This document shows positions 4,491 through 55,770 of a stretch of DNA of 64,000 nucleotides, in pieces; position 1 is the first letter of the stretch, and each line of letters opens with the position of its first letter. The translations under genes were made by a program, and so were the position numbers. The stretch is taken from NCBI GenBank assembly GCA_965249485.1, contig CBDFMG010000005.1, forward strand, positions 97,337 through 161,336, read 5' to 3'. Origin of the DNA: a bacterium. GTDB lineage: Bacteria; SM23-31. The notes under the pieces are model-generated. The model worked only from the letters and a program-made list of their open reading frames with translations. It searched no databases and was not told the origin of the DNA.

Positions 4491-5066
4491 TTAAAGATTT
4501 AGTTTGTCTTCAATATTTTCCCAAGGGATGAATACTGAATTATCAGTGCTGGAATGAAATCCTGTATGGGTTCCAAAGAATGTGGTCTTTGCTAGATTGG
4601 TATATGGTCCACCACTATCACCGTCATCTGAGATATCAGTTGTCAACTCAACTACGTCAAACCCAATACCGCCCTCATAACTTGTTGCAGAATTATTATT
4701 TACAATTCCGGCTTTTGTACCGCTTGTAGATCCAGACATAAGAACTAGCGTGTTATCTGCAGCTCTATCTGTGAAAGTCGTTATGGTGGTATAGTAATTG
4801 GCTGAGTACCATACCTTTTTTTCCTGATAGGAGTCACCGCTGTTTTTATCTATAAACGCACAGTCACATCCTACTTCCCATACCAATTGTGTAGCTTTTC
4901 CTATTTCAGGATCAGATGGAGTTGGTTGATCAACATGGTTCTGGTGCATTCTGGTGATCAGATCATCATTTTGCACCATAACCCAGGATCTTAGAAGGCT
5001 AAAGTCTTGGATGTACAAGAAGCAGACAGAGCATCTCAAGCCGCATCTGATGAACAGAAAGAGCAC
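4491..5066 (-). CDS. Hypothetical protein whose true start is probably internal
   Basis: The ORF's 5' end overlaps an IS-end-like palindrome at 4944-4975 (ttctggtgatcagatcatcattttgcacc), so the annotated N-terminus is doubtful. Confidence 0.3.
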   Translation of the reverse strand: MLFLFIRCGLRCSVCFLYIQDFSLLRSWVMVQNDDLITRMHQNHVDQPTPSDPEIGKATQLVWEVGCDCAFIDKNSGDSYQEKKVWYSANYYTTITTFTDRAADNTLVLMSGSTSGTKAGIVNNNSATSYEGGIGFDVVELTTDISDDGDSGGPYTNLAKTTFFGTHTGFHSSTDNSVFIPWENIEDKLNL

Positions 5067-6570: not shown

Positions 6571-7587
6571 TTACCGCGTTCTGTAAGAAATAGTCGTAGT
6601 GCATTGATAATCTTCCGTGTTTTGATTCACAATGAATACCGATCCTTCATCACATAGTATGTTAGCCCATGTAACCTTTTTTGATTTAGACTGTTGTTGA
6701 TGATTTTGATTAATCACATCGACCAGCGAGAATCCTTCTCCTCCTGAGCTGCTGATGCTTTCTTCTGAGCTGCTTCCGCCGCCGTTTAGCACACTGCTGA
6801 TGCTTTCTTCTGAGCTTTCGCTATTGTTATCATCATTACCACTGTTGAATATGTCGGCCAGCGAGAATCCTTCTGAGCTGCCACTGCTGATGCTTTCTTC
6901 TGAGCTTCCGCCATTGTTATCATCATTACCACTGTTGAATATGTCAGCCAGCGAGAATCCTTCTGAGCTGCTTCCGCTATTGTTATCACTGTTGAATATG
7001 TCAGCCAATCCGTCACCAAAGTTGCTGACGCTGTTTAGCACACCGGCCAGCGAGAATCCTTCTGAGCTGCTTCCGCTATTGTTATCACTGTTGAATATGT
7101 CAGCCAATCCGTCACCAAAGTTGCTGACGCTGTTTAGCACACCGGCCAGCGAGAATCCTTCTGAGCTACTGCTTCCAGACTGTAAAGAGAAGCTTGACAA
7201 TTGTTTGGATCCTGTTACAAAGAACGTCTCAGTTACAGACAGGCCGCTGTCTGTCCGCACGGTGGCCTTGTATTTGCCGTTCATGCTGTAGTCATCTGCC
7301 AGATGTCCTACCTGAGATCCCCAGGTTCCCTCTGTCCACTGCCTTATCATGACTTCCTTGTTTTTGATTATGCTGCCAGAGGGATCAGTAATCACCAAAT
7401 AGTAATATCCGTCCTGCGGGTTGTAGTTTGATACCCACACATTCATGCGCAGCAGATCATCCTTGCTCACATCAATGGTGTTTCCAAGTGGAAAAGAAAT
7501 GGTAATTCCAGTCTGGCCATATGCTACTGTCGCAGGCATACAAAATATCATCGTCGTCACTATGATTGCCATAATGTACATCATCAT
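6571..7587 (-). CDS. Secreted Ser/Gly/Asn-rich protein with internal tandem repeats
   Basis: N-terminal hydrophobic signal. The unit SSEGFSLAGVLNSVSNFGDGLADIFNSDNNSG and variants repeat at least four times, reflected in ~100-bp DNA repeats over 6750-7200. Confidence 0.5.
   Translation of the reverse strand: MMMYIMAIIVTTMIFCMPATVAYGQTGITISFPLGNTIDVSKDDLLRMNVWVSNYNPQDGYYYLVITDPSGSIIKNKEVMIRQWTEGTWGSQVGHLADDYSMNGKYKATVRTDSGLSVTETFFVTGSKQLSSFSLQSGSSSSEGFSLAGVLNSVSNFGDGLADIFNSDNNSGSSSEGFSLAGVLNSVSNFGDGLADIFNSDNNSGSSSEGFSLADIFNSGNDDNNGGSSEESISSGSSEGFSLADIFNSGNDDNNSESSEESISSVLNGGGSSSEESISSSGGEGFSLVDVINQNHQQQSKSKKVTWANILCDEGSVFIVNQNTEDYQCTTTISYRTR
6760..7200. repeat. Intragenic tandem repeats of roughly 100-120 bp, about 4 units
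   Basis: The DNA motif cagcgagaatccttctgagctgcttccgc... recurs directly and gives the protein-level repeats in ORF 6571-7587. Confidence 0.55.
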
Positions 7588-11238: not shown

Positions 11239-12075
11239 CTATTGCATTGCAATCATCTTGTTGTACAGACAAACTTTCATTTTCAACTCATGAATCATGT
11301 TCTCTCTTTTGTGCGATGTTACGTGTTCACCAAACATTCTCTTGAATGCAGAAAACACTGATTCAACAATCCATCTATCTCCATAGCTTACGCTATTCCT
11401 CCATAATTCATAATTGAATAATTGAGCCAGAACAGCTTTTCGTCTAGGATAACAATCAGTTGTAATTGATGAGTTCTTTCTTGTTTTGATTCCAGGAATT
11501 ATACTTTCATGATACAAATATGAAAAACAATCCTTGGTGTCATATGCACCATCAGCTAGTGTCTTGATTATATTTCCAAACTCTTTTGATTGTTCAACTA
11601 GTGATACAAAATGTTTTGAATCATGTGACTTGTCATCTGTAACCTCCAGACCCGTAATCTGCTTTGATTTTACATCTACTGCCACATGAATCTTGAGGAA
11701 ACCACGTCTTTTCTGCCATTTCTGTCTCATCCATTCGCCTCTGTCTGCAACCTTGATTCCAGAACTGTCAATTGCAATAACAATATCTTTTCCAAGTTTT
11801 GGGTTGCACTTGATGTCAAGCTTGTTTACTCTTTTCCAGATTGCAGAATACGTTGGTGTTTTTACTTTAGATTGCAGATGAGATTTTATCAAACCTTCAG
11901 TTTGTCTGAATGGCAGATGCAAATAGAGATGACAGTATCCTAGTGCCTCCATGAATGATTCAGGATAAACAAATTGATGTCCTTCTTTTTTGTGGTTCAT
12001 CTTCTTGAGTTCTGTGTTCCATGATTCTATAGCATCAAAAGACAAGGATGTGGTGTATTTTGGTGATCTGATCAC
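11239..12075 (-). CDS. IS5-family DDE transposase, N-terminally truncated
   Basis: DDE region with ...IAIDSSG... and LADGAYDTKD (DxGYxS signature). The region SFDAIESWNTELKKMNHKKEG is shared with the fragment at 42835-43098. The ORF start runs into the palindrome ggtgatctgatcac at ~12055-12090. Confidence 0.55.
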   Translation of the reverse strand: MIRSPKYTTSLSFDAIESWNTELKKMNHKKEGHQFVYPESFMEALGYCHLYLHLPFRQTEGLIKSHLQSKVKTPTYSAIWKRVNKLDIKCNPKLGKDIVIAIDSSGIKVADRGEWMRQKWQKRRGFLKIHVAVDVKSKQITGLEVTDDKSHDSKHFVSLVEQSKEFGNIIKTLADGAYDTKDCFSYLYHESIIPGIKTRKNSSITTDCYPRRKAVLAQLFNYELWRNSVSYGDRWIVESVFSAFKRMFGEHVTSHKRENMIHELKMKVCLYNKMIAMQ

Positions 12076-12324
12076 TATTTTGCACCAGAACCTTGCATGC
12101 TTTGATCAAATTGTGTTAATTGCGCAAGAGGTCTAGTATCTGACTCGTAAAAATTAGAGTGCAGCAAACCGGCCTTTGCAAATGAATCAAATAATTCTTT
12201 ATCCTTATCTCTTTGCGCCAACTCCTTGACATATTCTCCCAATCCTTTATGACTTTTGATGGATTTGTTCTCTCTTGCTGCAGCAGTCTTGATTACACAT
12301 AACATCGCACCCCACATCATCTCA

Positions 12325-13830
12325 CTTGGGTTCTGGTAACTTTTGGTGATCCGATCACCAAAATTTATCCATGTGAATCATTTTTATACATTTCTTGCTT
12401 TTTCAAACATCAGGGCATTGCTCTCGCTAGAGAAGAATTCCAATCAAAAGATGTGCAGACATGTATCCATACGAGACTATTCTCTCAATGCTATCTTCAT
12501 CCTAGTTAGGATTATTCGCAGTTAACAGGCGAGGCTTGTCCCTCATAAATTTTAACGCGACTTGTAGCCCTAACTATAATTTTGTACAAATTCTCTCCTT
12601 TCTTTTAACATCCAATAAATCACTCGCAAAATCTTTGATGCAGCAGCCACTGCAGCTTTGGATGTTCCTCTCTTCTTTTTTATTCTATTGTAAAACTTTG
12701 TAATGTCACTGTTCTTGGCATGTATTGCATGAGTGTGAATGCATTCTGTCAGAACCCATCTTAATGTCATGCTTCCTCTTTTTGTAATACTGCCATGATG
12801 TATGGTATCAGCTGAATTTCTGACTGATGGTACGACTCCTGCATATGCACACAGTTTGTGAGAGTCATTGAATCTTTCAATGTCCGCAATCTCGGATGCA
12901 ATGACTAGTGCAGAATAATTGCCAATTCCGGGAATCGAGTTTATCAGAATTGCATCAGGATTGGTCTTTACGGCAGCGTACACTTTTGAATTAATCTCTG
13001 CAATCTGCAAATTTAGATGGTTTATCTGTCGTAGGAATCCGTCTACTCTATAATCTCCTAATGCCCTGAGTCTTCTACAGTATATTTCAGTAAATGTAAC
13101 TCCAGGAATTTTGATTCCACCCTGTAACAAAATCCCATGAATGGAATTCTTGATAGCAGTTCTCCACTGGATGAGTTTCTTTCTGTATCTTACTAACTGG
13201 CGTTGTTGTACTATCTTTTTGTCTGGGACATAGCATTTGGCAATGTATCCACCACGTAGGAGATCTGCCAATATCCTGGCATCAATCTTGTCTGTCTTTT
13301 TCTTAGATGATGCAATTGCTTTTGTCAGATATGGGTTTGACAGTGTCACATTTTTATATTTTAATTCATCTGTCAGAAATCTATATGTGTCATACCAGAC
13401 TGATGAGGATTCCATGACAATATTGGCATGAAGTGGTATGTCTGTAAAATGTTTCTTGATCGATTGGTGAGTGTTCTCAACTTTGTTGTTTTGTAATACT
13501 TTGCCTTCATTATTCATTATTGCTACTTGAAGGAATTTCTTGTGCAGGTCAATGCCCACATACATGGTCTTCTTTGATTTATTCCTAATCTGTTTCTTTG
13601 GGCTTTTCTTGGAATACGATGAACTTTGAATCTTAGAATTAGATTCATTTCTTATGCTATCTGAATTCCTTCTCTCTATATTCACATATAGTTAACAACA
13701 ATATTTGAAGAGTCATGTTTTTGACTTGGCAAATCCATACTGTTGCAAAATTTGATTTCAGAGAAGATCATAAATCTGTGTTGAAATGCGTTGATCACCA
13801 AAATTTACCAGAACCCTTTAATGATAATTT
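12325..13830 (-). mobile_element. IS110-family insertion sequence, copy 2, apparently complete at about 1.5 kb
   Basis: Left end GGTTCTGGTAACTTTTGGTGATCCGATCACCAAAA. Right end GTTGATCACCAAAATTTACCAGAACCC, an inverted match of about 23 bp. Internal transposase CDS 12570-13685. Confidence 0.65.
12570..13685 (-). CDS. IS110-family (DEDD) transposase
   Basis: 371 aa, about 95% identical to ORF 2104-3219, with the same IS110 N- and C-terminal signatures. Confidence 0.75.
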   Translation of the reverse strand: MNIERRNSDSIRNESNSKIQSSSYSKKSPKKQIRNKSKKTMYVGIDLHKKFLQVAIMNNEGKVLQNNKVENTHQSIKKHFTDIPLHANIVMESSSVWYDTYRFLTDELKYKNVTLSNPYLTKAIASSKKKTDKIDARILADLLRGGYIAKCYVPDKKIVQQRQLVRYRKKLIQWRTAIKNSIHGILLQGGIKIPGVTFTEIYCRRLRALGDYRVDGFLRQINHLNLQIAEINSKVYAAVKTNPDAILINSIPGIGNYSALVIASEIADIERFNDSHKLCAYAGVVPSVRNSADTIHHGSITKRGSMTLRWVLTECIHTHAIHAKNSDITKFYNRIKKKRGTSKAAVAAASKILRVIYWMLKERREFVQNYS

Positions 13831-14537
13831 TAGTTTAAAGATGGATGGCTAGGATCGTAGAATTTTTCTAGCAGATTGCACAAAGAAGGATTTATTTTAT
13901 CTAAATTATCCCCAATAATCTCGTTTATGATGGCATCTGCAACATACGAATAATGCACTTGAGGATTGTTAAGTGATGAAAAAGCAAGTCTAGAAAGTTG
14001 TGATTCTGAAAAATCATCATATTTTTTTAATTGTACAGAAATTGTTTCAGATTCAGTGTAAGAACCGGAATTTTCCAATTCTGAAATTAGTTTATCTAAA
14101 TCAGAGGAATTCTTAGATGCAGATTTCATTTTAGAAAGTTTTGCAATTTCTTCTATTATGGAATCTTCAAAGGGAAAGGAACAGATTATTGCCTGTTTAG
14201 TAGCTACAAATCCATAGGGTCTTGTGCCGTCTATACATATTGGCAATACTGTTTTCTTGCAATTAATGGCTATGCCTGTTTCTTGATCCGTGTGTTTTGA
14301 AGTGTGGTAGTTTTTGGTAAGTAGCATAATGAATATTTTTGAACTTTGAATCTCTTCATATAACTTGGGCACCCAATCAGAACCACCATCAATATCTTCA
14401 TGAGCAAGAAAAACAGACAATCCGTGTTTTGATAATTTTGATTTTAGTTCAGAAGCAATTTTTTTGTCTTTATCGGAATGACTGAGAAAGATTTTGATAT
14501 TAGATATGTTTTTGCACCCATGTAATTTACGAGTCAA
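13830..14537 (-). CDS. TIR-domain protein
   Basis: N-terminal ~130 aa are a TIR fold: KIFLSHSDKDKKIASELKSKLSKHGLSVFLAHEDIDGG...YEEIQSSKIFIMLLTKNY. About 100 C-terminal residues are of unknown function. Confidence 0.55.
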   Translation of the reverse strand: MTRKLHGCKNISNIKIFLSHSDKDKKIASELKSKLSKHGLSVFLAHEDIDGGSDWVPKLYEEIQSSKIFIMLLTKNYHTSKHTDQETGIAINCKKTVLPICIDGTRPYGFVATKQAIICSFPFEDSIIEEIAKLSKMKSASKNSSDLDKLISELENSGSYTESETISVQLKKYDDFSESQLSRLAFSSLNNPQVHYSYVADAIINEIIGDNLDKINPSLCNLLEKFYDPSHPSLN

Positions 14538-17846: not shown

Positions 17847-19710
17847 CTCCCCCGAGATTGAACATCTTGATTACTATTGGTATTGCATACATTGCAATCA
17901 TCGTGTTCACTGATACAATGATTACCGGAGCCGTATCCTTTACGGTGTATGAGACAATCTTTGCGGCTACAAATCCTGTGGGAATTACTGCAAGTGCAGC
18001 CATCACCTCTATACCGTCGATATATCTCTCGTCAATTGCCCCCATTGACGAGAGAAACGGAATGTTTACGTCGCTGGGTATATCCGGTCCGCCTGCAAAC
18101 ATGGATATCATCATGTGTGATATTCCAAGCATCAGAAAAGGGCTGGCATATACTATCATGCTCATTGAGCGCAGTCCCTTGCTTACGCGCTCCTTTGTCT
18201 CATGTACGGATATGACAAACTCTGTAATCGTGTTAAAGTTCTCAGTGGAGCCCCCGCCGCTCCTGTACGTCTTTGCAAGAAGAAACATGATGAACTTTAC
18301 GTGGATTGACTCAAAGGCCATCTTTGAAACTGCGATATCAAATGTCTCACCCTTCTTGATTTTGGCAGCAATACTGTCGATAATTCTGTTGAACTGCTTC
18401 TTGTACGAGTGGTTTTTTGCCTGCCTCTGTATTATCTGTCCGATGTTTTCACCGGTCTTTGACATATCTGTGACGTCCCGCATGAACTCTGGAAGCATCG
18501 AGTCTATCACCCTTATCTCTGTGAGCTTGTTTCTTACCATCATAGTATTGACTACAGCCCCGATTAGAAATCCGCTGACAATAGTCGTTGCAAGATCAAC
18601 TCCTGCAAAATATACAATGACTGCTACCATGATTCCCGCAATAGGGCTGATTGGCGTTATCTTTATCTGGTTTCCGGTAATCGGCTGGTTGGTGTTGAGT
18701 ATTATTACCATAAGCAGCGCAATGAATGGCGACATGACTGTTCCTAAAAGAAGCATGGTGCCTGTCGTCTCAGATGTCCCAATCATTCCCGATGCCATGA
18801 TCATCAATGGCATGATAATTGAGACCATCAGTACTGCTGAGAATATCTCTTGTGCGCTCTTTTCATACCTATCCCAGGAGTCCCTGTACAGATGGAAAAA
18901 CTGCTTTGCCTTCTCTGAGGTGTAGCTTGGAACATCGCCAATGCTTGCAATCTTTGCAAGGTATCCGGAGATGAAGTTCCTGAACACCTCTGAGGGGTGC
19001 GATTCAGCATACACACTAAGTGACTCGTTTTGTGTAACGCCGATCATGTCAACGCGCTTTACTATCTCCCCTGCATCCTGCGCAATTGCATTAAACACCC
19101 TTACGCCACGAATGTCCTTAAATGAGTGATACAGCCCCCGCCCTATTGTCTGCATGATATTGACATAGCACAAAAAGTACGCCATCTCTTCCTCTATTCT
19201 TGACTTGCGTTCTACTATGGTCAGTCTTAGCTGAATGTATGGAGACATATAGATAATTGCAGGTACGGCACAAACTACCAGAAATATCTCGCTTGCAGTA
19301 ATTCCAAGATAAATTCCAATGACAGTTGTGGGGACAAACACTGTAACTGCAATGCGTGTCATGGTTGTTGCCATTTTTTCTGCGTCATAGTTTTTACCTG
19401 TCTTTGGAATCTGCGCCAGTATCTGACGCTCGTTGAACACCCGAAGACGTACCAAGTATTTCAGCTTTGATTCCAGAAACACAAATATCTTTTCAAGCGA
19501 TGTCTGCTTGTACTTGTAAATCCATATTGTCCCGTCTGATGATCTTGCAGACAGTTTTGGCTTTCTAAAAAGTGGTGAGAAGAGGGACACTATGCAACAG
19601 GCAACAAGAAACCCTGACAGCATCACATAATCAAAGCCGCCGTCAGAAAACAGCACGACACACCACAGCAGACTGAAAAAGAATCCAGATACGACAAGAT
19701 GGGTCTTCAT
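17836..19710 (-). CDS. Polytopic membrane protein, TadC/FlaJ/GspF-like (two repeated cytoplasmic-domain plus TM modules)
   Basis: 624 aa with at least 8 predicted TM helices. Internal duplication of a soluble domain followed by TM triplets is the GspF architecture. Translationally coupled to the ATPase gene. Confidence 0.4.
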   Translation of the reverse strand: MKTHLVVSGFFFSLLWCVVLFSDGGFDYVMLSGFLVACCIVSLFSPLFRKPKLSARSSDGTIWIYKYKQTSLEKIFVFLESKLKYLVRLRVFNERQILAQIPKTGKNYDAEKMATTMTRIAVTVFVPTTVIGIYLGITASEIFLVVCAVPAIIYMSPYIQLRLTIVERKSRIEEEMAYFLCYVNIMQTIGRGLYHSFKDIRGVRVFNAIAQDAGEIVKRVDMIGVTQNESLSVYAESHPSEVFRNFISGYLAKIASIGDVPSYTSEKAKQFFHLYRDSWDRYEKSAQEIFSAVLMVSIIMPLMIMASGMIGTSETTGTMLLLGTVMSPFIALLMVIILNTNQPITGNQIKITPISPIAGIMVAVIVYFAGVDLATTIVSGFLIGAVVNTMMVRNKLTEIRVIDSMLPEFMRDVTDMSKTGENIGQIIQRQAKNHSYKKQFNRIIDSIAAKIKKGETFDIAVSKMAFESIHVKFIMFLLAKTYRSGGGSTENFNTITEFVISVHETKERVSKGLRSMSMIVYASPFLMLGISHMMISMFAGGPDIPSDVNIPFLSSMGAIDERYIDGIEVMAALAVIPTGFVAAKIVSYTVKDTAPVIIVSVNTMIAMYAIPIVIKMFNLGGGGG

Positions 19711-21734
19711 AGAACCTCACCGATTAGCACTGCCATGTTTACCGGAACTATCAGTGATGCCAGCACCATGTTTTTGAACAGCGGACTTGCCCTCTCCATG
19801 TCTGCAATGTGTGGCGCTGCGACATAGTATGCAGCATGCACTGTATCAAAGAACGGCGACCATCCAGAACCGATCATGTCTGCCCTGTATTCCCGCAGTA
19901 CCTGCACCTGATGTGCCAAGGACGTGCCATATACTGCAAGTGCTATTGGACAGTCATTTTCTACCGTCTCTTTTACTGCATCATCATCTGCCTTTTCCTG
20001 TACGTCATCATCTGCTGCCTTTGCCAGATCAATCTCGCAGCCATCTACCATGTCTGCAAACTCGCTTGTAAGGCAGCCTACGCTGTCAGGTCTTGAAAGT
20101 CCACTCTGTATGAGTTGCTGGTTTAGCGATATGCCAGAGCCGGTGCAGTACACGACAGAATAATACTGCCTGGTAAGTGCATCTGAGGATATCCTGGAAT
20201 CAAGGCCCAGCGTCGTGTCCCTGTCCACCACTGCAACAGAGCCGACCGGGCATATCTGACTGACTGACTCGGCAGTGGCATTGACTGGTATTGCAATAGA
20301 CGTGGTGACTCTCTTCTGACCAATCCTCAAAGTATCGCCGTCTATGATCTCTGCGATATGGTCTGCAAAACATCCTGCTTCATGGCCGTGGTCTGTAATG
20401 TTTTGAATGTTGATCCCCCTGCATTTTATTGACTTGTGCTCTGATATCATAAACGGAGTCCGTCCCTCGGCATTTTCCGTACGGATCACAATCTCGTATT
20501 TTCCGGACTTCCATGTAGGCTGTGTTATCACGTCAAACCTGCCAGTGCCGTCAGACTCGATTTTACTCTTTTGTCCATCGATGCGGTTTCCGTCAGGATC
20601 ATAAACTGATATTGATAAAGACTCTCGCGTCGTCGTCTTGCCAGGATGTGCAAACTCTGCACTGATTATCTCTCCGGCATTTGTGTGGCGGTACTTTGCA
20701 AGGTCAAGGATTATCTTCACCGGTTTTTTTATCTCTTCCTCTGCAAAATCTAAAATGGAGTCGGCACTCTCGGGAACTGCGATTCCGCTTGATGATATGC
20801 GTATCGTGCCTTCCATCCAGGGATGATACAGACAGGAGTAAAGCACTGTTCCCGGCTCTGCAAACTTTATTATCCTCGAGTGTCCTGACTTTAGGATATT
20901 TGTCTCAAAAAAGTTAACAGTCTTCTGCAGCTTGTCATCTATTGGCTTTTGCTCTTCTCGTCCATACCCGAGCGCAATTGAGTGGATGTTGTGTATCTGA
21001 TCAGAGTCGTTGTACCATTCCACTGTCTGTCCAGCATCAATGCTTACCTTCGGTCTGTCGTAGCATGCCTGCTTGCCGGTCTTTGAGCAGCCGTCTATCT
21101 CGACTGGGTTGATTGTAACTGTGGCGTCTCCGCGTTCAAGTCCTGCCAGCTTTGTGTAAAAGACGGTACTTCCAATGTTATACTTTGCGGTGTCATACTT
21201 TTTGTGTCCGGTACTGTCATACCCCAAGTCTGCCGTAATAGAATATGTCGCAGACACAGTATGCCTGCCTTCTGTATCCCTTGAGCCGATAACTGGATGC
21301 CATACGGAAAAAACACTTTCGTTTCCTGACATGACAGTGTGTGTCTGCTGGCTTTTGTCAGGTGCCGTGATTACAATTGTAACTGCTGACTTTTTGGTGC
21401 CGTCGGCAAGTGTGCCATATATGAGAATGTTTGTCTGTACATTTTTTTCCATGTGCATGATCTCATCTGGTGCGACAATTGTCGGACTGCCAGTCGACTC
21501 CAGATTTGCGTACCTGCATTCATGGATTGACTGGCATGATGCATATGCCGGTATGATCATCATACAACAACAACAGCAAAGCAAAACGGCAGTCATTATT
21601 ACAGGGCTCATTTTTTCACCATTGATGCTATTCCCTTTGGAAGCTTTTTTGGAATCTTGACTGATCTTGATTTTTCCTTTAGTGTAGAAACATAGTCCCT
21701 CAGATTCATAATGACGTCGGGGGATTTTTTCCAC
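19707..21734 (-). CDS. Secreted multidomain protein with a cupredoxin (type-1 copper) domain and an SNase-like domain
   Basis: Internal signal peptide MSPVIMTAVLLCCCCCMMIIPAYA. Cupredoxin ligands are HNIHS ... YSCLYHPWMEG (Cys-x2-His-x2-Met). Downstream AEIIDGDTLRIG matches the thermonuclease V/IDGDT motif. Overlaps the next gene by 4 nt. Confidence 0.5.
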   Translation of the reverse strand: MEKIPRRHYESEGLCFYTKGKIKISQDSKKASKGNSINGEKMSPVIMTAVLLCCCCCMMIIPAYASCQSIHECRYANLESTGSPTIVAPDEIMHMEKNVQTNILIYGTLADGTKKSAVTIVITAPDKSQQTHTVMSGNESVFSVWHPVIGSRDTEGRHTVSATYSITADLGYDSTGHKKYDTAKYNIGSTVFYTKLAGLERGDATVTINPVEIDGCSKTGKQACYDRPKVSIDAGQTVEWYNDSDQIHNIHSIALGYGREEQKPIDDKLQKTVNFFETNILKSGHSRIIKFAEPGTVLYSCLYHPWMEGTIRISSSGIAVPESADSILDFAEEEIKKPVKIILDLAKYRHTNAGEIISAEFAHPGKTTTRESLSISVYDPDGNRIDGQKSKIESDGTGRFDVITQPTWKSGKYEIVIRTENAEGRTPFMISEHKSIKCRGINIQNITDHGHEAGCFADHIAEIIDGDTLRIGQKRVTTSIAIPVNATAESVSQICPVGSVAVVDRDTTLGLDSRISSDALTRQYYSVVYCTGSGISLNQQLIQSGLSRPDSVGCLTSEFADMVDGCEIDLAKAADDDVQEKADDDAVKETVENDCPIALAVYGTSLAHQVQVLREYRADMIGSGWSPFFDTVHAAYYVAAPHIADMERASPLFKNMVLASLIVPVNMAVLIGEVL

Positions 21735-24661
21735 ACAAGCACAAACGGCACAATGACTGATGATGCGATTAGCAGAATCAGAACAGTGTATGTCTTCTCA
21801 TAGACTACGGTGCCAGTTACTGACTCGTCGGCCACAAATAATACTGACTGCCCATCTGCTGATACCTTGGCATCCTCTGGAAGTCCTATCCACTCTTCTG
21901 GCACGTGCCATATCAGTCCGTACAGTTCAGTTGCAATGGGCGCATGCAGTACAACGACATCGCCGTACCTGTGATGGCCATTCCCTGAGATGTCTGCAAA
22001 CACATCATTTGAGTCCAAAAATGCGCCAAAGTCAATCTCTATCACCCTCTGATATGCTCCTGTTATCGTAGAGTCCTGCGTTATCCTTAGCGTGAACTTT
22101 TCTGCATGGTTTATCTCCTCGCCGTTAAGGCTTAGCTTCTGCAATTCATATTGCCTGTCAGTGCCGACATTAAGATCTGCATCGATGCTTATCTCAAAGA
22201 CCCCGGGATGTATGGTATAGTACAGCCCATTTTTCACGTTTATCTTTTCCGCTGTTGCCGATGACTCCAGATCAAACGATGCTGCAACTGAAACGCCGTC
22301 ATCTGCAATTGCATTAAACACGACATCGACTAGCTCCTCTACTGTAAAGTTTACATTTTCCGTGTATTTCTTCCAGCCGTCCTTCTCCACATTTACGGTA
22401 ACTGAATACTGGCCAGGTGCCGTAGGCGTTGCGACGTAGTTGTCTGACGCATCAACCTCAAAGTCAAGTCCGGATATGGACACATCAGGGTTTTGTAGCG
22501 CGCCAGTAAAGATGTCCAGTATTATCTCTGATCCAAGCTTTAGAACATTGGGTGTTGGTGATATTACCTGAACTTCGGACTCTGCGTCATTTGCAAATGA
22601 CTTGATCACAGCTGATCCGAGATACCTGTTGTCAGAAATTATGTTCAGATTTGTAGTGCCTTCATTTTCTACAACAAACCGCACATGGTCGTCTTTAACA
22701 TTTGCAGTGATTTGCTCAGAAGAGATGTTCAGGCTGTCAAGATCAGTAATCAGTGCAATCGGAATTCCGTTGGAATCTACTGCATGAATCGCAACAGGAA
22801 ACTCTTTGAACACATTTACTCTTGACGGTGTCCATATCTCTATCCCTGTCTTTACACCTGACGTGTCAAGGCTGGTGGTCTCAGAGTTGATCCCTGGAAT
22901 CTGGACAAATATTTTTGCGCCCTCCTTGAGATACGTACCTGTAATGATGTTGGTTCCGCCAACCCAGTAGTCGTTTATCCCAATGTCTGCAAGCGAGTTG
23001 CCGGCTTGAATCACGTTTGTCTTTTCAGTGTCTACTATCCCCCCAACATCCGTGATGTGTCCTGACTTGTCCACAATTGACATGTACGCAATATCGCCAT
23101 GAGTCCCCAAAGGTATGGGAATCGGCGTTACCTGCAGTATGTGCTTGAAGCCATATGCAGTATCGGAGTTGAACTGTATCTCCGCGCTTTCAGCATTGCT
23201 GTTTTGCACGGATATGGCATGCTCCCCTTTTGTGTTGATGTCAATGGGTATGTCCATTGCAGAGAATGTAAAATGTGTGCTGTCCTCATCAGATAAAATT
23301 GTGTCAAATTTTATCTCTGTTGGATATTTCAGTCCGTCATCGCCGGATACTGACACTACTGTGTCAAGTGATGTGATTGGGTTTAGATTCCCGTCATAGC
23401 GCTCAACGAATGCATGCGTGTCATTTAGTATGTGATACAATCCAACTGTTGCCCATGCCGTGTCTGCTGGCGTAGTTGGGTGCACCCACAGCTTTAGAAC
23501 ATCTATCTTTGGTCTTTCGCTGAGCTGGACTGGCGGCATTACCAGAATCTCCTCTGAATGGCTGCCATACCCTGGAACTGAAACCGTGATTACTACTGCG
23601 TCATTGTAATCTTCTGAGGCGTCTTCTATGTAAAAATGGGAACGCAGTGTTCCGCGTGACATGTATGTGTGATACAGCTCATCATCATTCTCGTTTGTCC
23701 TGAATGATACCTTGTCAGGATCAGAGCTTGAAAGATAGACGTCTAGAACCTCGTCGGGGATGTAGATAGAGTCGTCCTGCTCAAGCCATACGTAATAGTA
23801 TCCTATGGAATTAGCAAGTGCGATGTCTGGTGCGATTCCGAGACGCACCTTTGGACTGTTAGTATCATATAAGATTTCAAGCGAGTCTGATTCAAGCCCG
23901 TCTGATGTCGCATAGATTGTTCCGTCCCCACCAACACGCACTACGGCATTGGCGCTGTACTGACCCTCCAGAACACGGAGTGTCACTGTATCAGTCAGTG
24001 TGCCGCCATTGCTGAACTGCACGGCAGGCGAGGAGGAGCTTATTGTTATCTCCGTCTCTTGCTTTGCGATGATTGGTATCTGGTGGTTGTCAACCAGAAA
24101 CACCTTGACTGGCACGTCGTCTGTAGATACAGTAATGGAGTCATCAGATATCGGCGCTGATATCATCAGCGCAGTAGGATGTAATGCAACCGAATAAACA
24201 GTAGAACTGTCCTGTGCCACTGCATCGTTGGTTATGGCATGGACTGTGACTGTGCCGTCCTGCGGTGATTGCGGTGTAAGTTCAAAAATGACATGGTTGC
24301 TTCCGGTAGGAATTGCTACTGTACTTGGAATCTCAAGAAGGTTTGAATCAGTTGCAAGGGATACTGTTATGTCGTGACGTTTTGGCTCCAGTATTAGCAG
24401 TACCCCCTCATATGAAATGTCTGCAATCATTTTTTTTGGTATGTGCACTGAAAAATCCGCAACTATCTCGTCAGGTGATTCGGCAGCCGAGTCGGCGGCA
24501 GAGTCCGGACTAAGCTCTTCATCTGATACGTCGTCCACTGCTGCTGCGATGTCAGGATCTACCTGAGCAGATACAGGAACGGCTGCTACTGCAAACAATG
24601 CAATGCACGCAGTGAGATATGCCAGATGGGTTTTCAAGGACTGCCGCCACCTGTAGCGCAT
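21608..24661 (-). CDS. Large cell-surface protein with signal peptide, Ig-like repeats and a C-terminal TM anchor
   Basis: 1017 aa. Signal LTACIALFAVAAVPVSAQ. C-terminal LILLIASSVIVPFVLVWKK anchor followed by basic residues. Confidence 0.5.
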   Translation of the reverse strand: MRYRWRQSLKTHLAYLTACIALFAVAAVPVSAQVDPDIAAAVDDVSDEELSPDSAADSAAESPDEIVADFSVHIPKKMIADISYEGVLLILEPKRHDITVSLATDSNLLEIPSTVAIPTGSNHVIFELTPQSPQDGTVTVHAITNDAVAQDSSTVYSVALHPTALMISAPISDDSITVSTDDVPVKVFLVDNHQIPIIAKQETEITISSSSPAVQFSNGGTLTDTVTLRVLEGQYSANAVVRVGGDGTIYATSDGLESDSLEILYDTNSPKVRLGIAPDIALANSIGYYYVWLEQDDSIYIPDEVLDVYLSSSDPDKVSFRTNENDDELYHTYMSRGTLRSHFYIEDASEDYNDAVVITVSVPGYGSHSEEILVMPPVQLSERPKIDVLKLWVHPTTPADTAWATVGLYHILNDTHAFVERYDGNLNPITSLDTVVSVSGDDGLKYPTEIKFDTILSDEDSTHFTFSAMDIPIDINTKGEHAISVQNSNAESAEIQFNSDTAYGFKHILQVTPIPIPLGTHGDIAYMSIVDKSGHITDVGGIVDTEKTNVIQAGNSLADIGINDYWVGGTNIITGTYLKEGAKIFVQIPGINSETTSLDTSGVKTGIEIWTPSRVNVFKEFPVAIHAVDSNGIPIALITDLDSLNISSEQITANVKDDHVRFVVENEGTTNLNIISDNRYLGSAVIKSFANDAESEVQVISPTPNVLKLGSEIILDIFTGALQNPDVSISGLDFEVDASDNYVATPTAPGQYSVTVNVEKDGWKKYTENVNFTVEELVDVVFNAIADDGVSVAASFDLESSATAEKINVKNGLYYTIHPGVFEISIDADLNVGTDRQYELQKLSLNGEEINHAEKFTLRITQDSTITGAYQRVIEIDFGAFLDSNDVFADISGNGHHRYGDVVVLHAPIATELYGLIWHVPEEWIGLPEDAKVSADGQSVLFVADESVTGTVVYEKTYTVLILLIASSVIVPFVLVWKKSPDVIMNLRDYVSTLKEKSRSVKIPKKLPKGIASMVKK

Positions 24662-25023
24662 TTTTGTTTGAGGGCGTCTATTGTGGATTCCAAAGTGTCT
24701 GCAAAATCATCGTTGCTGCCATGTACGATATCCCCATCCTGGGACTCTGTGAATATTCTCCCATCATCACACTTTATCATCAGGCCTGAAACGGCAGACG
24801 CGTCGCCCCATGTATTGTTCATGATGAGATTCATAGTGGAGTCACTTCCAGTGTGATTAAAGACTAACTTTACTGCAATGTCCTCTTTTACCCTCTCGTT
24901 TTGAATCATGTTGGATTCCTCCTTTTGCTGGCTTATCACGCTCTGACTGTTGTTATATGTGACAAACATTCCAATAATGGTTATAGCTATTACTACAATG
25001 CCAATCGCAACAATGATTCCCAT
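24634..25023 (-). CDS. Small N-terminally membrane-anchored protein, possibly pilin-like
   Basis: N-terminal hydrophobic segment MGIIVAIGIVVIAITIIGMF followed by a polar domain. 129 aa. Coupled within the operon. Confidence 0.35.
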   Translation of the reverse strand: MGIIVAIGIVVIAITIIGMFVTYNNSQSVISQQKEESNMIQNERVKEDIAVKLVFNHTGSDSTMNLIMNNTWGDASAVSGLMIKCDDGRIFTESQDGDIVHGSNDDFADTLESTIDALKQKCATGGGSP

Positions 25024-25885: not shown

Positions 25886-28078
25886 CTAGCACCCGTGTCT
25901 TACCGCCCAGTCATGAGACCCAAACTCACTTGAATTGCAAAATGAAGTTATCACGTATCCGATTCCAGACTCCAAAAGATACTCGTTAAGATTCACGCCA
26001 TTGCAGTGAATCACGCCGATTATTCTTTCATAGCTTCCCTGTGTCTGAAAATCATCCTCGTCTACAATAACCTCAGAGCCTACAGGACAAATGCCTGCAA
26101 CCAGATCCTTGGCATAAGGTCCTGCACTCTCAGACAGCTCAGGAGCTGACGCAAGTGCAAATCTGATATTCTGTCCGCCTGTTATCTTTATGGTATCACC
26201 GTCAATTATCCTCACCGCATGAGTCTCGATGCACCTTGCGTTTCCAATGCATGATGGCGCGGACTGAATGTTGTCGTTTTCAGGTGGTGGTACTGCGTCT
26301 GGCTGCAGACTGCCACCAAGCGGTGACACAATCTCCAATGTCTCTGAATATGCAAATACTGGAATTGTAAGAGTTCTATAATCAGACCTGGCATTATCTT
26401 CGGTGTGTTCTGTTTCTTTGCCGTCAAGATATACTACAAATGTAGTATCCTCTCCATTCTCACCATCACGCGCATCCAAAACATCTCTTGGAATTCTTAC
26501 AACCAGGTCAGCGTCAACTGCGTTCTCAGACTGGTCAAAAAACAGCACCACAGAATCGTCGTACTTGAATGTCTCATGAATTATCCTACCTTGAATATCA
26601 AAGGATATCTGCTGGGCTTGCACATCATCTTCATCACCGCCGCCCGCATCGGAAGAAGAAGAAGTACCTGCCGTATTTTCTTTTCCTGTCTTCACTGCTG
26701 AGAGACTGTCAAAGTCAAATGACGTGGTCGCAGTTGCAGTGCCGTGATTTATTGTGGCTGACATCTTGCCGATAATATCCCAACTGCTTGTGTTTACCTC
26801 TATATGGTATGTGCCGTCCTCGTCAATTGACACTGGAATTGATGAGAAAGGCATGCCTTCAATCTCTGTCTGAATTATAGCTGAAAATGAGTTTACAGAT
26901 GTTCTGGATGCAATCCCATCAAAGCTGATTGTCTCGCCCCTTGTGTAAAAGTCCTTCTCAGTTGATATGGAAAGTATCTCTGTGCTTGAGGCGGGGTTTG
27001 ACGGATCCAGTTTTCTGTCAAGCCATTCCAAGAACTGCTCATACAGCTTGTCTGAATCAATGTCAAGTCCTGGAATTATGGAGCCTGCATTATCTGCATC
27101 GTTTTGTATTTGCGGAATATCCTCCTGCAGTTCCGGTGCGGTGGCTGGTTCTTTTGGGATTTTGTCTGGTGCTGCAGGATCTGTCTCTGGAATGTCTGGC
27201 ACTGCCTGCTCTATCTTGCTTGTGTGAATCAGCTTGAACCAGAACTTATTGTCAACGTATGTGTCCCTTAGTATGATGGTGTCAGTTAACACCTTGCCCT
27301 CAAGTGGAAAAGCAATGCCATCTGCAATGCTTACCTCTACAATCGGCCTGTCTGATAGATACTTTACAGTATGAACTCCATTGTCATAAAACAGATTCTC
27401 GTACTGGTACTGCGGATGCTTTGAGGTCACAATCACTACAAAGTCTTTGTCGTGGCTTACCCATTCCTCACCCACACGGATTATGGGGGGAATCTTATAC
27501 ACGTTTCCACTGCCGACAGATATCTTTCCGCCTATGAGCATTATTGTGTCGTATATCGAATCAGCATATCTGTTACCGGCAGGATGCGTTGTCTTTAACT
27601 CAAATCGGTCACTGGAAAGAAATGTGTAATGCTGTATGTTTGCAGGATCCGCATTTTTGGCATACCTGATGTTCATCGAGTCCACATCAAAGTCGCCTGT
27701 CGCCTTTTGGTTTGTCCCAAGATATCCATACTCGTCAGGTGTTAGATATCCCAGAACCTCCTGAATCCTTGCATTGACTATCCAGTATGATCCAAAGTCA
27801 TCTGCGGTCTTTCCGGCAAACTCCAATGTCGCCTCATAGCACACTGCATTGGGTTTTGTAACGCATATAAGATAACCGTACACATCGCCTTCTTCCAGTC
27901 CTTCCCCAAGACTCCATCTCGCATCATGCGCAATTATGTCTTCGGCCAGTCCGCCATATGCAGACAGCAGTGATGACAGTGGCAGCAATAGCGCTATCAA
28001 CATCATCAGCGATATACTCAGTGATGCCCGTCGTGATAGTGATGGCAGTTGTGGCATTAGCATTGACGGAAAACTCAT
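25886..28078 (-). CDS. Secreted large protein with a C-terminal staphylococcal-nuclease (thermonuclease) domain
   Basis: Signal LLPLSSLLSAYG. The C-terminus RIIDGDTIKITGGQNIRFALASAPE...YERIIGVIHCNGVNLNEYLLESGIGYV matches the SNase fold with its catalytic R/D/E region. Overlaps the upstream gene by 4 nt. Confidence 0.6.
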   Translation of the reverse strand: MSFPSMLMPQLPSLSRRASLSISLMMLIALLLPLSSLLSAYGGLAEDIIAHDARWSLGEGLEEGDVYGYLICVTKPNAVCYEATLEFAGKTADDFGSYWIVNARIQEVLGYLTPDEYGYLGTNQKATGDFDVDSMNIRYAKNADPANIQHYTFLSSDRFELKTTHPAGNRYADSIYDTIMLIGGKISVGSGNVYKIPPIIRVGEEWVSHDKDFVVIVTSKHPQYQYENLFYDNGVHTVKYLSDRPIVEVSIADGIAFPLEGKVLTDTIILRDTYVDNKFWFKLIHTSKIEQAVPDIPETDPAAPDKIPKEPATAPELQEDIPQIQNDADNAGSIIPGLDIDSDKLYEQFLEWLDRKLDPSNPASSTEILSISTEKDFYTRGETISFDGIASRTSVNSFSAIIQTEIEGMPFSSIPVSIDEDGTYHIEVNTSSWDIIGKMSATINHGTATATTSFDFDSLSAVKTGKENTAGTSSSSDAGGGDEDDVQAQQISFDIQGRIIHETFKYDDSVVLFFDQSENAVDADLVVRIPRDVLDARDGENGEDTTFVVYLDGKETEHTEDNARSDYRTLTIPVFAYSETLEIVSPLGGSLQPDAVPPPENDNIQSAPSCIGNARCIETHAVRIIDGDTIKITGGQNIRFALASAPELSESAGPYAKDLVAGICPVGSEVIVDEDDFQTQGSYERIIGVIHCNGVNLNEYLLESGIGYVITSFCNSSEFGSHDWAVRHGC

Positions 28079-29615: not shown

Positions 29616-30629
29616 TTGTATTTGATGAAAGTCGAACTGCAGATTGAAAACGTGGTGACAAAGACAGAGTGCTGCAAGACTTTTGATGTTGACGCGCTGG
29701 TAAAGTACAATGGGGCGTTTCGTGACATAGGTTTTCCTCCTGCAAAGTTTCGCTTCATGCGTCCCAAAAAACAAGTTACAGTCAACGTGTACAAGACAGG
29801 AAAGATAATCTGTCTTGGTGCAAAGTCAATAGAGAGGGCAATAGAGTACACAGAACGCATCATGAAAAAGCTTGACATTACGGACTCGTCAGAGATCACA
29901 GTAACGCGTGTAATGATGTCCGGACACTTTGTTGAAAAGGTGAACGTCTATAATGCAATACCTCTGATTGAAAAGGCAAGCAGATTCATAGGAATTGACT
30001 GCAACACAACAGGTCATGCTGCAGTAGTTGCCATACCTCATACAGGCAAAATACACAAGCTTGGAAAATCAGCCATTCATACGCATTCAAAATACAAGGC
30101 AGTTAGAAAGAAACTGCAAAGACAAGGAAAATTCTCACTGCTTAAAAAAATAAAAAACAAGGAATCAAGAATTGTAAAAAACATCAATCACCACGTTTCA
30201 AAAAAGATTGTCTCAAAGAATCAGGGAATCGTTTTGGAAAACATCAAGGGAATCAGAAAACTCTACAGAAAGGGAAACGGTCAAGGAAAAAAATATCGTG
30301 GAAGAATGAACTCCTGGAGCTACTACGAGCTACAGCGACAGATAGAGTATAAAGCTAAATGGGCTGGACTTCCAGTCCGATATGTAAGGGCAGTAGGAAC
30401 ATCATCAAAATGTGCGGTATGTGGAGTCAAGCTAATCTCCGAAGAGCACAGAAAGATGTGGTGTCCTAGTTGCAGAAATGTAGTTGATAGGGATATCAAC
30501 GCAGCCAAAAATATCTTGGCTAGAGGGATGAGGTTCGTCCCCGACGGGTCACAAGTTGAAGCGGTGAAGCAGTCAAAAGATGCAGAGCAGATTGTGGTCA
30601 GTAAGTCTCCAATGATTCTCTACAATTGA
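29616..30629 (+). CDS. Chimeric ORF joining TBP N-terminal repeat 1 (~122 aa) to the C-terminal two-thirds of an IS605-family TnpB (RuvC-I to RuvC-III plus zinc finger)
   Basis: Residues 1-122 are identical to the TBP gene at 31398-31943. They are followed by FIGIDCNTTGHAAVV (RuvC-I GID), a zinc finger CAVCG...CPSCRN, and RuvC-III VVDRDINAAKNI. The N-terminal WED/REC part of TnpB is absent. The start is TTG in the ORF track, and an in-frame ATG follows 3 codons later. Confidence 0.55.
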   Translation: MYLMKVELQIENVVTKTECCKTFDVDALVKYNGAFRDIGFPPAKFRFMRPKKQVTVNVYKTGKIICLGAKSIERAIEYTERIMKKLDITDSSEITVTRVMMSGHFVEKVNVYNAIPLIEKASRFIGIDCNTTGHAAVVAIPHTGKIHKLGKSAIHTHSKYKAVRKKLQRQGKFSLLKKIKNKESRIVKNINHHVSKKIVSKNQGIVLENIKGIRKLYRKGNGQGKKYRGRMNSWSYYELQRQIEYKAKWAGLPVRYVRAVGTSSKCAVCGVKLISEEHRKMWCPSCRNVVDRDINAAKNILARGMRFVPDGSQVEAVKQSKDAEQIVVSKSPMILYN

Positions 30630-30671: not shown

Positions 30672-31304
30672 CTACCCTGGCCTGACACGTACAGTGTATG
30701 CATCGGAGATTAGAGTGTCCTCACCAGATTCAAACTGAAGCTTCAGGGTTAACCTGTCAGAGATGTTTACTACCTTGCTGATGTCTGGACTGGTTGTTTC
30801 TGTAACTTCAATTTTGAACGCATTGGTTCTGCCGCCTTCAAGTACAGACTCTGTCACTGTACCTACCGCATCACCAACAGAGAATCCTTTGAAAGTTCCA
30901 ATCCCTAAAGCAGCAGTACAACCGGTGAAAGTGGCAGCGCATCGGTTGGATGAAGCAGTGCCGTCTGTCAAAGTCAGAATTCCGGTATCGGCATCCTGTA
31001 TGATTCTCAAATCAGACACACTGATACTGTCAATGTAGATCTCAGAAACGGTTATCTGGCCGATGTTCTTGATTGCTCCGGTAATGCTTAGCGTGTCCCC
31101 GTCAAGCAGTGCGCTGAGTGTGGTAACTGTAATTCCACTGTTTGACAGGAATGGATCTGCCTGCTCCTGGAAAATAAAGTATAATCCGCTACCGGCAGCA
31201 GCAGTGACTCCCAATGTGATAATCGTTCCAAATATTGCAGACAGTGCAGCTTTCTTTGTTCGTGCTAGATGTCGTTTTCGTTGTTTATCATTCTCAATAT
31301 TCAT
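30672..31304 (-). CDS. Secreted or membrane-anchored hypothetical protein
   Basis: N-terminal basic stretch followed by the hydrophobic segment LSAIFGTIITLGVTAAAGSGLYFIF. 210 aa. Confidence 0.4.
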   Translation of the reverse strand: MNIENDKQRKRHLARTKKAALSAIFGTIITLGVTAAAGSGLYFIFQEQADPFLSNSGITVTTLSALLDGDTLSITGAIKNIGQITVSEIYIDSISVSDLRIIQDADTGILTLTDGTASSNRCAATFTGCTAALGIGTFKGFSVGDAVGTVTESVLEGGRTNAFKIEVTETTSPDISKVVNISDRLTLKLQFESGEDTLISDAYTVRVRPG

Positions 31305-31397: not shown

Positions 31398-31943
31398 TCA
31401 TGAGTTTGCACGAAGAATTATGCCATACAGCTCGTCAACTGCACTGCGAATCGCCTCCTCATCAGGTCCGCTACAACTTATCTTTATTGGCTCGACTGTA
31501 GCAAATATGTGCGTTGAGGTATTTCTTCCAGTAATGACTATTGCCTGAAACGCCTCGGTGTCAACTACCACATTATATCTTGCCTTTTCAATCAGAGGTA
31601 TTGCGTTATAGACGTTCACCTTTTCAACAAAGTGTCCGGACATCATTACACGCGTTACTGTGATCTCTGACGAGTCCGTAATGTCAAGCTTTTTCATGAT
31701 GCGTTCTGTGTACTCTATTGCCCTCTCTATTGACTTTGCACCAAGACAGATTATCTTTCCTGTCTTGTACACGTTGACTGTAACTTGTTTTTTGGGACGC
31801 ATGAAGCGAAACTTTGCAGGAGGAAAACCTATGTCACGAAACGCCCCATTGTACTTTACCAGCGCGTCAACATCAAAAGTCTTGCAGCACTCTGTCTTTG
31901 TCACCACGTTTTCAATCTGCAGTTCGACTTTCATCAAATACAA
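31398..31943 (-). CDS. tbp: TATA-box-binding protein (TBP), about 180 aa with two repeats
   Basis: Repeat 1 reads ...QIENVVTKTECCKTFDVDALVKY...PKKQVTVNVYKTGKIICLGAKSIERAIEYTERIMKKL, the TBP pattern N-VV-x-L-D-L ... T-x-LIF-SGK-xVCTGAKS. A shorter second repeat is present. The size is archaeal. The true start is probably the ATG 3 codons inside the TTG-start ORF. Confidence 0.7.
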   Translation of the reverse strand: MYLMKVELQIENVVTKTECCKTFDVDALVKYNGAFRDIGFPPAKFRFMRPKKQVTVNVYKTGKIICLGAKSIERAIEYTERIMKKLDITDSSEITVTRVMMSGHFVEKVNVYNAIPLIEKARYNVVVDTEAFQAIVITGRNTSTHIFATVEPIKISCSGPDEEAIRSAVDELYGIILRANS

Positions 31944-31962: not shown

Positions 31963-32046
31963 CGCTAACTGCCACCGTACAAGTACGGCGGTCTTCTCGC
32001 CGTGTGATTATAATTTCCCCTTAAATACAGTCTTCCTTTTTGTAGA

Positions 32047-32942: not shown

Positions 32943-33030
32943 CCGATGACAGAACTTAGTTTATCATCACACGGCGAGAAGACCGCCGTACAAGTACGGT
33001 GGCAGTTCACAGAACAGCTGACCCTTTTAA

Positions 33031-34956: not shown

Positions 34957-35133
34957 GGAAGAGGGTTCCGTACTTGTACGGTGGCCTTCTCGCCGTGTGA
35001 TTATAATTTACAAAAAATTGTACGGATTTCATCAAAAACAGACAAAAATGACACCGATATTCGCATTTCAAGTGACCCCAAATTTTTTGACTTTTCTGAA
35101 AAATGGGCAAAAATTTTGGCACTAGGCGTGGCT

Positions 35134-35177: not shown

Positions 35178-35370
35178 GAATTTCGCTATTAAAAACTTGG
35201 AAAAACAGAGAAATTTGTCTCCAAAATAGTAAAAGCATTCCAGTATAAATAAGTTTGGTTCTGGGTAATCTGGGCTCTGTCAAGTTAGCGGGTGTTAGCT
35301 AGAAATTTTATCCGTGTCAAGTGTCGGGTGTTTTAGTTCTTAAAATCAACCCTGTATGATGACATAATAC

Positions 35371-35457
35371 GCAGAGAGTGGGATTCGAACCCACGGTTCG
35401 GTAAAGAACTGATGCTCAAGAGACAACCACTCTAGACCTTACTAAGCAATCTCTGCA
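35371..35457 (-). tRNA. tRNA gene of ~87 nt with no encoded CCA; long variable arm or intron; anticodon not resolved
   Basis: Reverse complement reads GCAGAGA...GTGGGTTCGAATCCCAC TCTCTGC. That gives a perfect 7-bp acceptor stem and a canonical T-arm (GTGGG-TTCGAAT-CCCAC). A GTTC/GAAC extra stem fits a class-II variable arm. I could not fold the D and anticodon arms by eye. Confidence 0.6.
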
Positions 35458-43098: not shown

Positions 43099-43099
43099 T

Positions 43100-55766: not shown

Positions 55767-55770
55767 CTTC

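Follow-up and report, generated by a model that had tools for sequence, protein, structure and literature searches.

Why should a blue-copper domain and a thermonuclease-like domain share one exported polypeptide, and why should such a polypeptide be encoded among genes that seem to handle DNA? The question is raised by a minus-strand open reading frame (ORF) at 19707-21734 of the 64,000-nucleotide stretch of contig CBDFMG010000005.1 (assembly GCA_965249485.1) analyzed here in full and called the window below. A sequence-only reading of this ORF had pointed to a plastocyanin-like copper site followed, about 150 aa downstream, by an IIDGDT segment, and had described the product as an odd pairing of a redox-active copper domain with a nuclease domain. 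We find the pairing to be real and conserved, but one half of it appears to be a pseudo-enzyme. The copper ligands are strictly maintained in the family, whereas the domain derived from staphylococcal nuclease (SNase) has lost its key catalytic residues.

The motifs HNIH and YSCLYHPWMEG provide four copper ligands, His207 (20991-20993), Cys260 (20832-20834), His263 (20823-20825), and Met266 (20814-20816), with residues counted throughout from the Met at ATG 21611 (see below). Pfam Copper-bind (PF00127) matches residues 223-313 of the 675-aa ORF at 32.4 bits, above its gathering score of 21.2 (E 1.3e-7), and a phmmer search with the domain against PDB sequences retrieved amicyanins at E 3.8e-7. 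The four ligands pair with amicyanin His53, Cys92, His95, and Met98 (numbers from our own count along its sequence), the C-x2-H-x2-M spacing is identical, and the domain has the Greek-key beta-sandwich of the cupredoxin fold. In an alignment of 11 family members, which are 26-38% identical to the fusion protein, all four ligands are among only 33 invariant columns, which indicates that the copper site is under selection. The domain is thus a genuine plastocyanin/amicyanin-type cupredoxin with all four ligands, as first proposed, and most likely binds copper. The equivalog cutoffs are not reached for amicyanin (TIGR02657, 34.5 vs 110.2 bits) or plastocyanin (TIGR02656, 17.8 vs 87.85 bits), and compared with amicyanin there is an insertion of ~14 residues; by these scores it is a relative of these proteins rather than an orthologue. 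Among PDB sequences the top match comes from Nitrosopumilus maritimus, namely the cupredoxin at the C-terminus of its multicopper oxidase/NirK (9cck), in which the stretch YICTLHPWMKGTISV is nearly the same as YSCLYHPWMEGTIRI of the fusion protein, and the other closest solved relative is the ‘purple cupredoxin’ Nmar_1307 of N. maritimus (5fc9). However, unlike the free small electron carriers of this type, the cupredoxin described here is internal to a 634-aa anchored protein encoded in a conjugation operon.

The SNase half was reached by an indirect route. IIDGDT corresponds to residues 422-427 (20331-20348), 162 residues past Cys260 and so about as far downstream as had been stated. Direct searches for an SNase domain with the fusion protein (Pfam, NCBIfam, PDB sequences, and a three-sequence profile against the PDB) gave no match, and Pfam SNase (PF00565) does not match the domain even at E<=10. 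The homology was established through the domain of a neighboring protein and a large profile search. By BLASTP, the region aligns with the C-terminal domain of a 730-aa protein encoded in the same block (E 5e-13, 35% identity). A three-sequence profile of the region matched 282 proteins at E<=1e-3 in a search of 1.84 billion representative proteins, and all ten short matches that we sampled contain PF00565 above threshold; IIDGDT is therefore not a chance motif. An hhalign comparison of the family domain with the remaining matches, anchored on the S. aureus nuclease, gave 99.8% probability and E 6.7e-29, and the domain has the OB-type fold of SNase. These comparisons point to a real SNase fold that is homologous to active nucleases and lies on the same exported polypeptide as the cupredoxin, and the non-catalytic SN-like domains of Tudor-SN/SND1 are among its closest known counterparts.

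Catalytic residues were then counted in 15 members of the fusion family and in 136 other SNase-like matches. Arg35 is present in 132/136 of the non-family proteins vs 1/15 of the family, and Glu43 in 128/136 vs 0/15. Asp21 is common to both groups (131/136 and 13/15). At Arg87, which 130/136 of the non-family proteins retain, the family instead has a conserved Arg (in D-S-R) that aligns two positions earlier in 11/15 members, although the register is uncertain. The hhalign alignment also places a 13-residue deletion at the loop Asp40-Thr41-Pro42-Glu43. Compared with staphylococcal nuclease (PF00565), the family domain therefore lacks Arg35, Glu43, and the Asp40-Glu43 loop and has five invariant cysteines. 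The sequence-only reading had made its nuclease claim depend on the catalytic Arg and Glu positions, and on this point the claim fails. We infer that this SNase-derived module no longer cuts nucleic acid, which corrects a naive annotation of the gene as a nuclease.

A better candidate for the nuclease of the operon is the 730-aa protein itself, a catalytically intact paralogue that had gone unremarked. Its C-terminal SNase domain matches the staphylococcal thermonuclease of the PDB (phmmer, E 1.5e-7), with IDGDT, Arg35, P-E43, and Y-x-R87 aligned, and Asp21, Arg35, Glu43, and Arg87 are kept in its orthologues as well; Asp40 is replaced by Ser, as it is in 53/136 of the non-family matches. Family scans gave a weak match of the protein to the nuclease EcnA and no family match for its N-terminal 600 residues. 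By sequence, the SNase domains of the two proteins are paralogues, and that of the 730-aa protein is apparently active. The two proteins co-occur in loci L001, L004, L005, and L037.

The maximal ORF of the fusion protein, 675 aa, is counted from GTG 21734. The true start is likely ATG 21611, since this codon shares an ATGA with the stop of the 1017-aa ORF upstream (which ends at 21608), is preceded by GGTGA ~7 nt 5', and gives a product with a typical signal peptide, MSPVIMTAVLLCCCCCMMIIPAYA with cleavage before SC, matched in the homologues. At the other end, the stop codon shares an ATGA with the start of the next gene, which codes for a TadC/UpsF-like protein. Homologues at 26-38% identity align along the full length of the protein. 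The ORFs on the opposite strand within 19707-21611 are considered spurious, because it is the minus-strand frame that has full-length homologues and conserved synteny.

The domain order is a signal peptide, an immunoglobulin (Ig)/MG-like sandwich, the type-1 cupredoxin, a second MG-like sandwich, the SNase fold, an acidic linker, and a divergent CFI-box C-terminal anchor (Table 1). The homologues start with comparable segments whose last residues before SC are A-x-[AG], with an invariant Ala and then Ser-Cys directly past the cleavage site. We ruled out a lipoprotein, as there is no lipobox and the Ser separates the cleavage site from the Cys. The five invariant cysteines of the SNase-like domain fit an extracytoplasmic location and, together with the signal peptide, make it probable that the protein is exported. 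Directly after the cleavage site, residues 25-32 (21516-21539, minus strand) form a motif S-C-x-S-[IV]-[HE]-[EDV]-C that is found in 9/11 homologues and is missing in P0009 and P0010; it may form a disulfide loop or an extra metal site, and the model of the fusion protein has low confidence in this segment.

An AlphaFold2 model built from 11 sequences has a mean pLDDT of 74.6, with domains at ~80-90 and a pTM of 0.40; an earlier run with four sequences (mean pLDDT 44.9) was too poor for use. The confident single domains and low pTM suggest flexible linkage, as in beads on a string. Both beta-sandwiches resemble the MG domains of alpha-2-macroglobulin/complement and adhesin repeats, and Foldseek ranks a large adhesion protein first for the Ig/MG architecture, the match being to its extending region. 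We rejected a relationship with alpha-2-macroglobulin, as the likeness is limited to the fold of the sandwiches: Pfam MG2 (PF01835) scores 27.3 bits, under its gathering score of 32.8, and no other profile of the A2M family matched. The C-terminal region is modeled as three helices (pLDDT ~60). Two homologues score above the curated cutoff of 40 bits for NCBIfam CFI-box-CTERM NF041770 (P0007, 44.7; P0008, 46.1), eight others score 26-39, and P0006 has no match to it. From these scores, we take the C-terminus of the fusion protein to be a divergent member of this family.

Table 1 Features of the fusion gene, its operon, and the surrounding GC-rich stretch (positions in the window)
Feature	Position	Strand	Remarks
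Fusion-protein gene, 634 aa	19707..21611	-	likely start ATG 21611; stop codon 19707-19709
Signal peptide, residues 1-24	21540..21611	-	predicted from sequence; cleavage between AYA and SC
First Ig/MG-like beta-sandwich, residues 40-160	21132..21494	-	
Type-1 cupredoxin, residues 165-275	20787..21119	-	
Second MG2-like beta-sandwich, residues 296-392	20436..20726	-	
Cysteine-rich SNase-fold domain, residues 397-525	20037..20423	-	without catalytic Arg35 and Glu43
Acidic low-complexity linker, residues 526-553	19953..20036	-	net charge -9; pLDDT <50
Divergent CFI-box-CTERM, residues 554-634	19710..19952	-	helical, hydrophobic tail; putative membrane anchor/sorting signal
VirD4/TraD/HerA-type coupling ATPase, 972 aa	14928..17846	-	DUF87, AAA_10, TrwB_AAD_bind above thresholds
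TadC/UpsF-like type IV pilus platform protein, 624 aa	17836..19710	-	PF00482 T2SSF, E 5.2e-12; always immediately downstream of fusion gene
Exported 1017-aa protein with C-terminal transmembrane (TM) segment	21608..24661	-	always immediately upstream of fusion gene
Exported 730-aa protein with intact SNase	25886..28078	-	SNase domain is the C-terminal 125 residues, 25889-26263
VirB4/TraG-P-loop ATPase	33031-34956		within GC-rich stretch
TrbL/VirB6-like membrane protein	37339-39372		weak match; within GC-rich stretch
T2SSE ATPase	44659-46155		within GC-rich stretch

The sequence-only reading had also recommended a search for homologues with the same fusion, and these exist: at least 11 clusters, formed at 50% identity, share the fusion. 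Full-length homologues were found on three Nitrosopumilaceae/Nitrosopumilus chromosomes assembled from metagenomes and on metagenome contigs. A separate search for homologous proteins returned only two when queried with the family alignment and none for the isolated cupredoxin domain. The order cupredoxin then SNase recurs in at least three architectures. P0071 (355 aa, 3752-4819 of L034) combines a cupredoxin with a full copper site (CFVHPWM) and an SNase domain with all catalytic residues, and P0091 (457 aa, 8001-9374 of L035) has an Ig domain, a cupredoxin with an axial Val, an SNase domain, and a TM anchor. As cupredoxins are abundant in exported proteins of ammonia-oxidizing archaea (AOA), this recurrence could be due to chance. 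The neighborhood of P0091 resembles a mobile element, with Fic and transposase genes.

The gene had been placed in a putative DNA-handling operon, and its surroundings bear this out, as it stands beside genes for a TadC/UpsF-like protein and a VirD4/TraD-like ATPase. The full conserved block reads 730-aa intact-SNase protein, 276 aa, 129 aa, 1017 aa, fusion gene, TadC/UpsF-like, and VirD4/TraD-like. Synteny was followed in the window and in seven further loci at 29-99% identity, and the order from the 1017-aa gene through the fusion gene and the TadC-like gene to the VirD4-like gene is kept in L001, L002, L003, L004, L005, L037, and L038. In scans of Pfam and NCBIfam, the upstream ORFs of 1017, 129, 276, and 232 aa had no family match. 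The 972-aa ATPase also matches TraG-D_C below the gathering score and, in part, NCBIfam TraD and CedD.

This block belongs to an island with a GC content of 0.42-0.47, compared with 0.32-0.38 in its flanks, and an integrase gene adjoins the host gene for ribosomal protein S2 (rpS2). Pilin-like N-termini, judged by eye, occur at 30672-31304 and 24634-25023. According to passages of Krupovic et al. 2019 (PMC6563490), the integrative conjugative elements (ICEs) of Thaumarchaeota encode VirB4-, VirD4-, VirB6-, and TadC-like proteins, a FlaI/PilB-type ATPase, pilin-like proteins, and an integrase. In the window we found VirB4-, VirD4-, VirB6-, and TadC-like genes, a secretion ATPase, putative pilins, and an integrase; as this gene set and the GC-distinct island match those ICEs, we assign the block, by its gene content, to an ICE of a Nitrosopumilaceae-type AOA. 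One difference is that the published elements carry TFIIB-ParB, as described in PMC6563490, whereas the window has TBP-domain genes there instead. Plastocyanin-family and thermonuclease-family genes are listed separately, as cargo, in the available text and supplement of that study, and its passages neither include a cupredoxin-SNase fusion nor list one as a conserved gene of the conjugation module. There is also a likeness to the Ups, Ced, and Ted systems of Crenarchaeota: in the window, the genes for an UpsF-like platform and a HerA/VirD4/CedD-like ATPase adjoin each other, and the setting is the relaxase-less archaeal DNA transfer presented in passages of PMC9905601. However, the proteins of the window score below the corresponding equivalog cutoffs (UpsF, 226.7 vs 400, E 5.3e-67; CedD, 27.5 vs 600), and these passages name neither a cupredoxin nor an SNase as part of Ups, Ced, or Ted.

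What could such a protein do in a mating apparatus? We see about an even chance that it binds copper and serves the ICE machinery as a scaffold or binding subunit with no catalytic role. Exported by Sec and tethered at its C-terminus, it would be part of the extracytoplasmic side of an apparatus that combines a type IV pilus with a type IV secretion-like system and would form a stalk-like scaffold in the space that separates membrane and S-layer. Its cupredoxin would derive from the many blue-copper proteins that the host keeps in its pseudo-periplasm and could serve in electron transfer, or only in stability, regulation, or sensing. The SNase-derived module would bind DNA, or the active paralogue, rather than cut, and any nuclease chemistry in the operon would be left to the 730-aa protein. 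Functional analogies, with no relationship in sequence or fold claimed, can be found among other extracytoplasmic proteins of DNA-transfer machines that are anchored to a membrane or wall. In Gram-positive competence, the nuclease EndA is paired with a non-catalytic DNA-binding partner, the DNA receptor ComEA, and the surface adhesin PrgB of pCF10 conjugation combines Ig-like stalks with a C-terminal sorting signal.

Several points weigh against this scaffold proposal, for which the support is entirely computational. Copper binding is argued from ligands and fold alone. The core role of the family does not depend on copper, since the cupredoxin is missing altogether from the high-GC relatives P0007, P0008, and P0058, which otherwise consist of Ig, MG, SNase-like, and CFI-box parts. 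The gene for P0008 is not adjacent to a TadC-like gene, L003 has no intact-SNase partner within 10 kb, and the fusion protein itself scores only 32.6 bits on the CFI-box profile, under the cutoff. The SNase-like domain keeps a V-D-x-D motif besides Asp21 (13/15) and the Arg near 87 (11/15), and it may retain a residual or altered activity, or a Ca2+ site. Moreover, it has lost most canonical nucleotide-pocket residues, which weakens the idea of DNA binding, and it is acidic, with a net charge of -7 to -9 and a pI of 4.6-4.7 (values that depend on the boundaries chosen) vs 9.6 for the basic staphylococcal nuclease/Tudor-SN reference. However, the entire archaeal SNase clade, intact members included, is equally acidic (median -10), and charge does not discriminate DNA binding here.

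Some of these observations would suit a mating-pair adhesin, with the cupredoxin and SNase folds used simply as robust extracellular beta-modules for contact between cells or between cell and matrix, with no DNA binding and no electron transfer. The loss of the nucleotide pocket, the relatives without cupredoxin, the string of Ig/MG domains with its adhesion-protein match in Foldseek, and the C-terminal sorting/anchor domain all agree with it, as does the adjoining UpsF-like platform, since Ups pili mediate aggregation in Sulfolobales (passages of PMC9905601). Four copper ligands that stay invariant at 26-38% identity are nevertheless unexpected for a purely structural module, and the pairing of the protein with an intact SNase paralogue within one block points to some connection with nucleic acids; on balance, we find an adhesin somewhat unlikely. 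A bifunctional secreted enzyme, which would combine a redox copper centre with a nuclease that is active through non-canonical residues or copper-assisted chemistry, could draw on the retained Asp21 and Arg, on the acidic V-D-x-D residues, which are invariant or nearly so, and on the pairings with intact nuclease residues elsewhere (P0071, P0091). Yet Arg35, Glu43, and the catalytic loop are lost across the family, and the Pfam SNase profile does not recognize the domain even at the most permissive threshold used. In addition, type-1 copper sites are coordinatively saturated electron carriers and not DNA-cleaving centres, and we consider such an enzyme very unlikely. The gene could finally be cargo, encoding an auxiliary electron carrier that helps the host to oxidize ammonia and has nothing to do with DNA transfer. 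The closest solved relatives are indeed N. maritimus copper proteins, and the supplement of PMC6563490 has plastocyanin-family cargo genes on integrated thaumarchaeal elements. However, cargo genes usually vary in position, whereas this one shows strict synteny and ATGA overlaps between the 1017-aa and TadC-like genes in the window and the seven other loci, and we consider cargo very unlikely too.

To return to the non-catalytic scaffold, it can be extended into a more specific model, which follows the logic of EndA/ComEA and which we regard as quite unlikely. The 730-aa protein and the fusion protein would together form the extracytoplasmic DNA-processing module of a relaxase-less archaeal conjugation or DNA import system: the active paralogue would cut or resect surface DNA, the dead one would hold or hand over the strand, and the invariant type-1 copper centre would link this step with conditions in the pseudo-periplasm of ammonia oxidizers, either its redox state or its copper state. 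If this were true, the recurrence of cupredoxin then SNase in P0071 and P0091 would mean that the two domains are functionally coupled.

No relaxase can be recognized in the conjugative elements of archaea, and passages of PMC9905601 and PMC6563490 present the processing of their DNA for transfer as a question still to be answered. The block yields two candidates for DNA handling in this setting, namely an exported SNase protein that is apparently active and a conserved partner in which the SNase domain is dead and a blue-copper centre appears strictly maintained. It would also be a case where an AOA cupredoxin is built into the machinery of a mobile element instead of a respiratory chain. All domains and the element type were already known; the domain architecture is new. 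We found no description of the fusion in the literature on the CFI-box, on thermonuclease with Nitrosopumilus, or on cupredoxin with SNase, nor do the available passages on thaumarchaeal elements describe two paired SNase proteins among the conserved genes of conjugation.

Other features of the island and its edges were recorded. In a 337-aa ORF at 29616-30629 (plus strand), a TBP domain at the N-terminus (E 1.8e-10) is joined to a Cas12f1/TnpB-like TNB zinc ribbon (E 1.9e-20), and a second TBP-domain ORF is nearby at 31398-31943 (minus strand). A tRNA-Lys (CTT) gene at 35369-35457 (minus strand), midway along the GC-rich island, may belong to the element or mark the point where two tandem elements meet. 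Direct repeats of 169 nt, 98% identical, at 51821-51989 and 55599-55767 flank a DNA methylase gene (52130-54745) and the integrase gene (54801-55538) beside rpS2; they may be the att sites of a small nested element or represent the end of the ICE. The left edge of the island (11239-14537, minus strand) carries an IS5-family (11239-12075) and an IS110-family (12570-13685) transposase gene, as well as a gene for a TIR-domain protein with Thoeris/retron-like matches (13830-14537). A possible second IS110-like copy lies at 2104-3219, with a 371-aa ORF and a 300-nt repeat that is 97% identical (region 1887-3219).

Two kinds of short repeats were seen. An intergenic repeat of ~50 nt, with the palindromic core CCACCGTACAAGTACGGTGG followed by CTTCTCGCCGTGTGAT, recurs within the element, with a single copy beyond it; the copies are at 917-967, 31963-32013, 34956-35006, and 44477-44527 and, reversed, at 32959-33016, 43052-43109, 49017-49074, and 50290-50347. 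The repeat may act as a terminator or a regulatory hairpin, or else be MITE-like. Palindromic repeats of ~50 nt that begin with GGTTCTGGTAAATTCTGGTGATCAGATCACCAGAA are located at 1025-1075, 4937-4987, 12329-12379, 51821-51871, 55599-55649, and 62215-62265 and look like MITE or IS ends. Genes of defense or toxin type code for an AIPR abortive-infection protein outside the island and for Fic/DOC and PIN-domain proteins inside it (57893-59641, 40535-41176, and 49555-50232, all plus strand). Finally, tandem repeats of 90-99 nt occupy 6710-7170 within a 338-aa ORF without a family match (6571-7587, minus strand).

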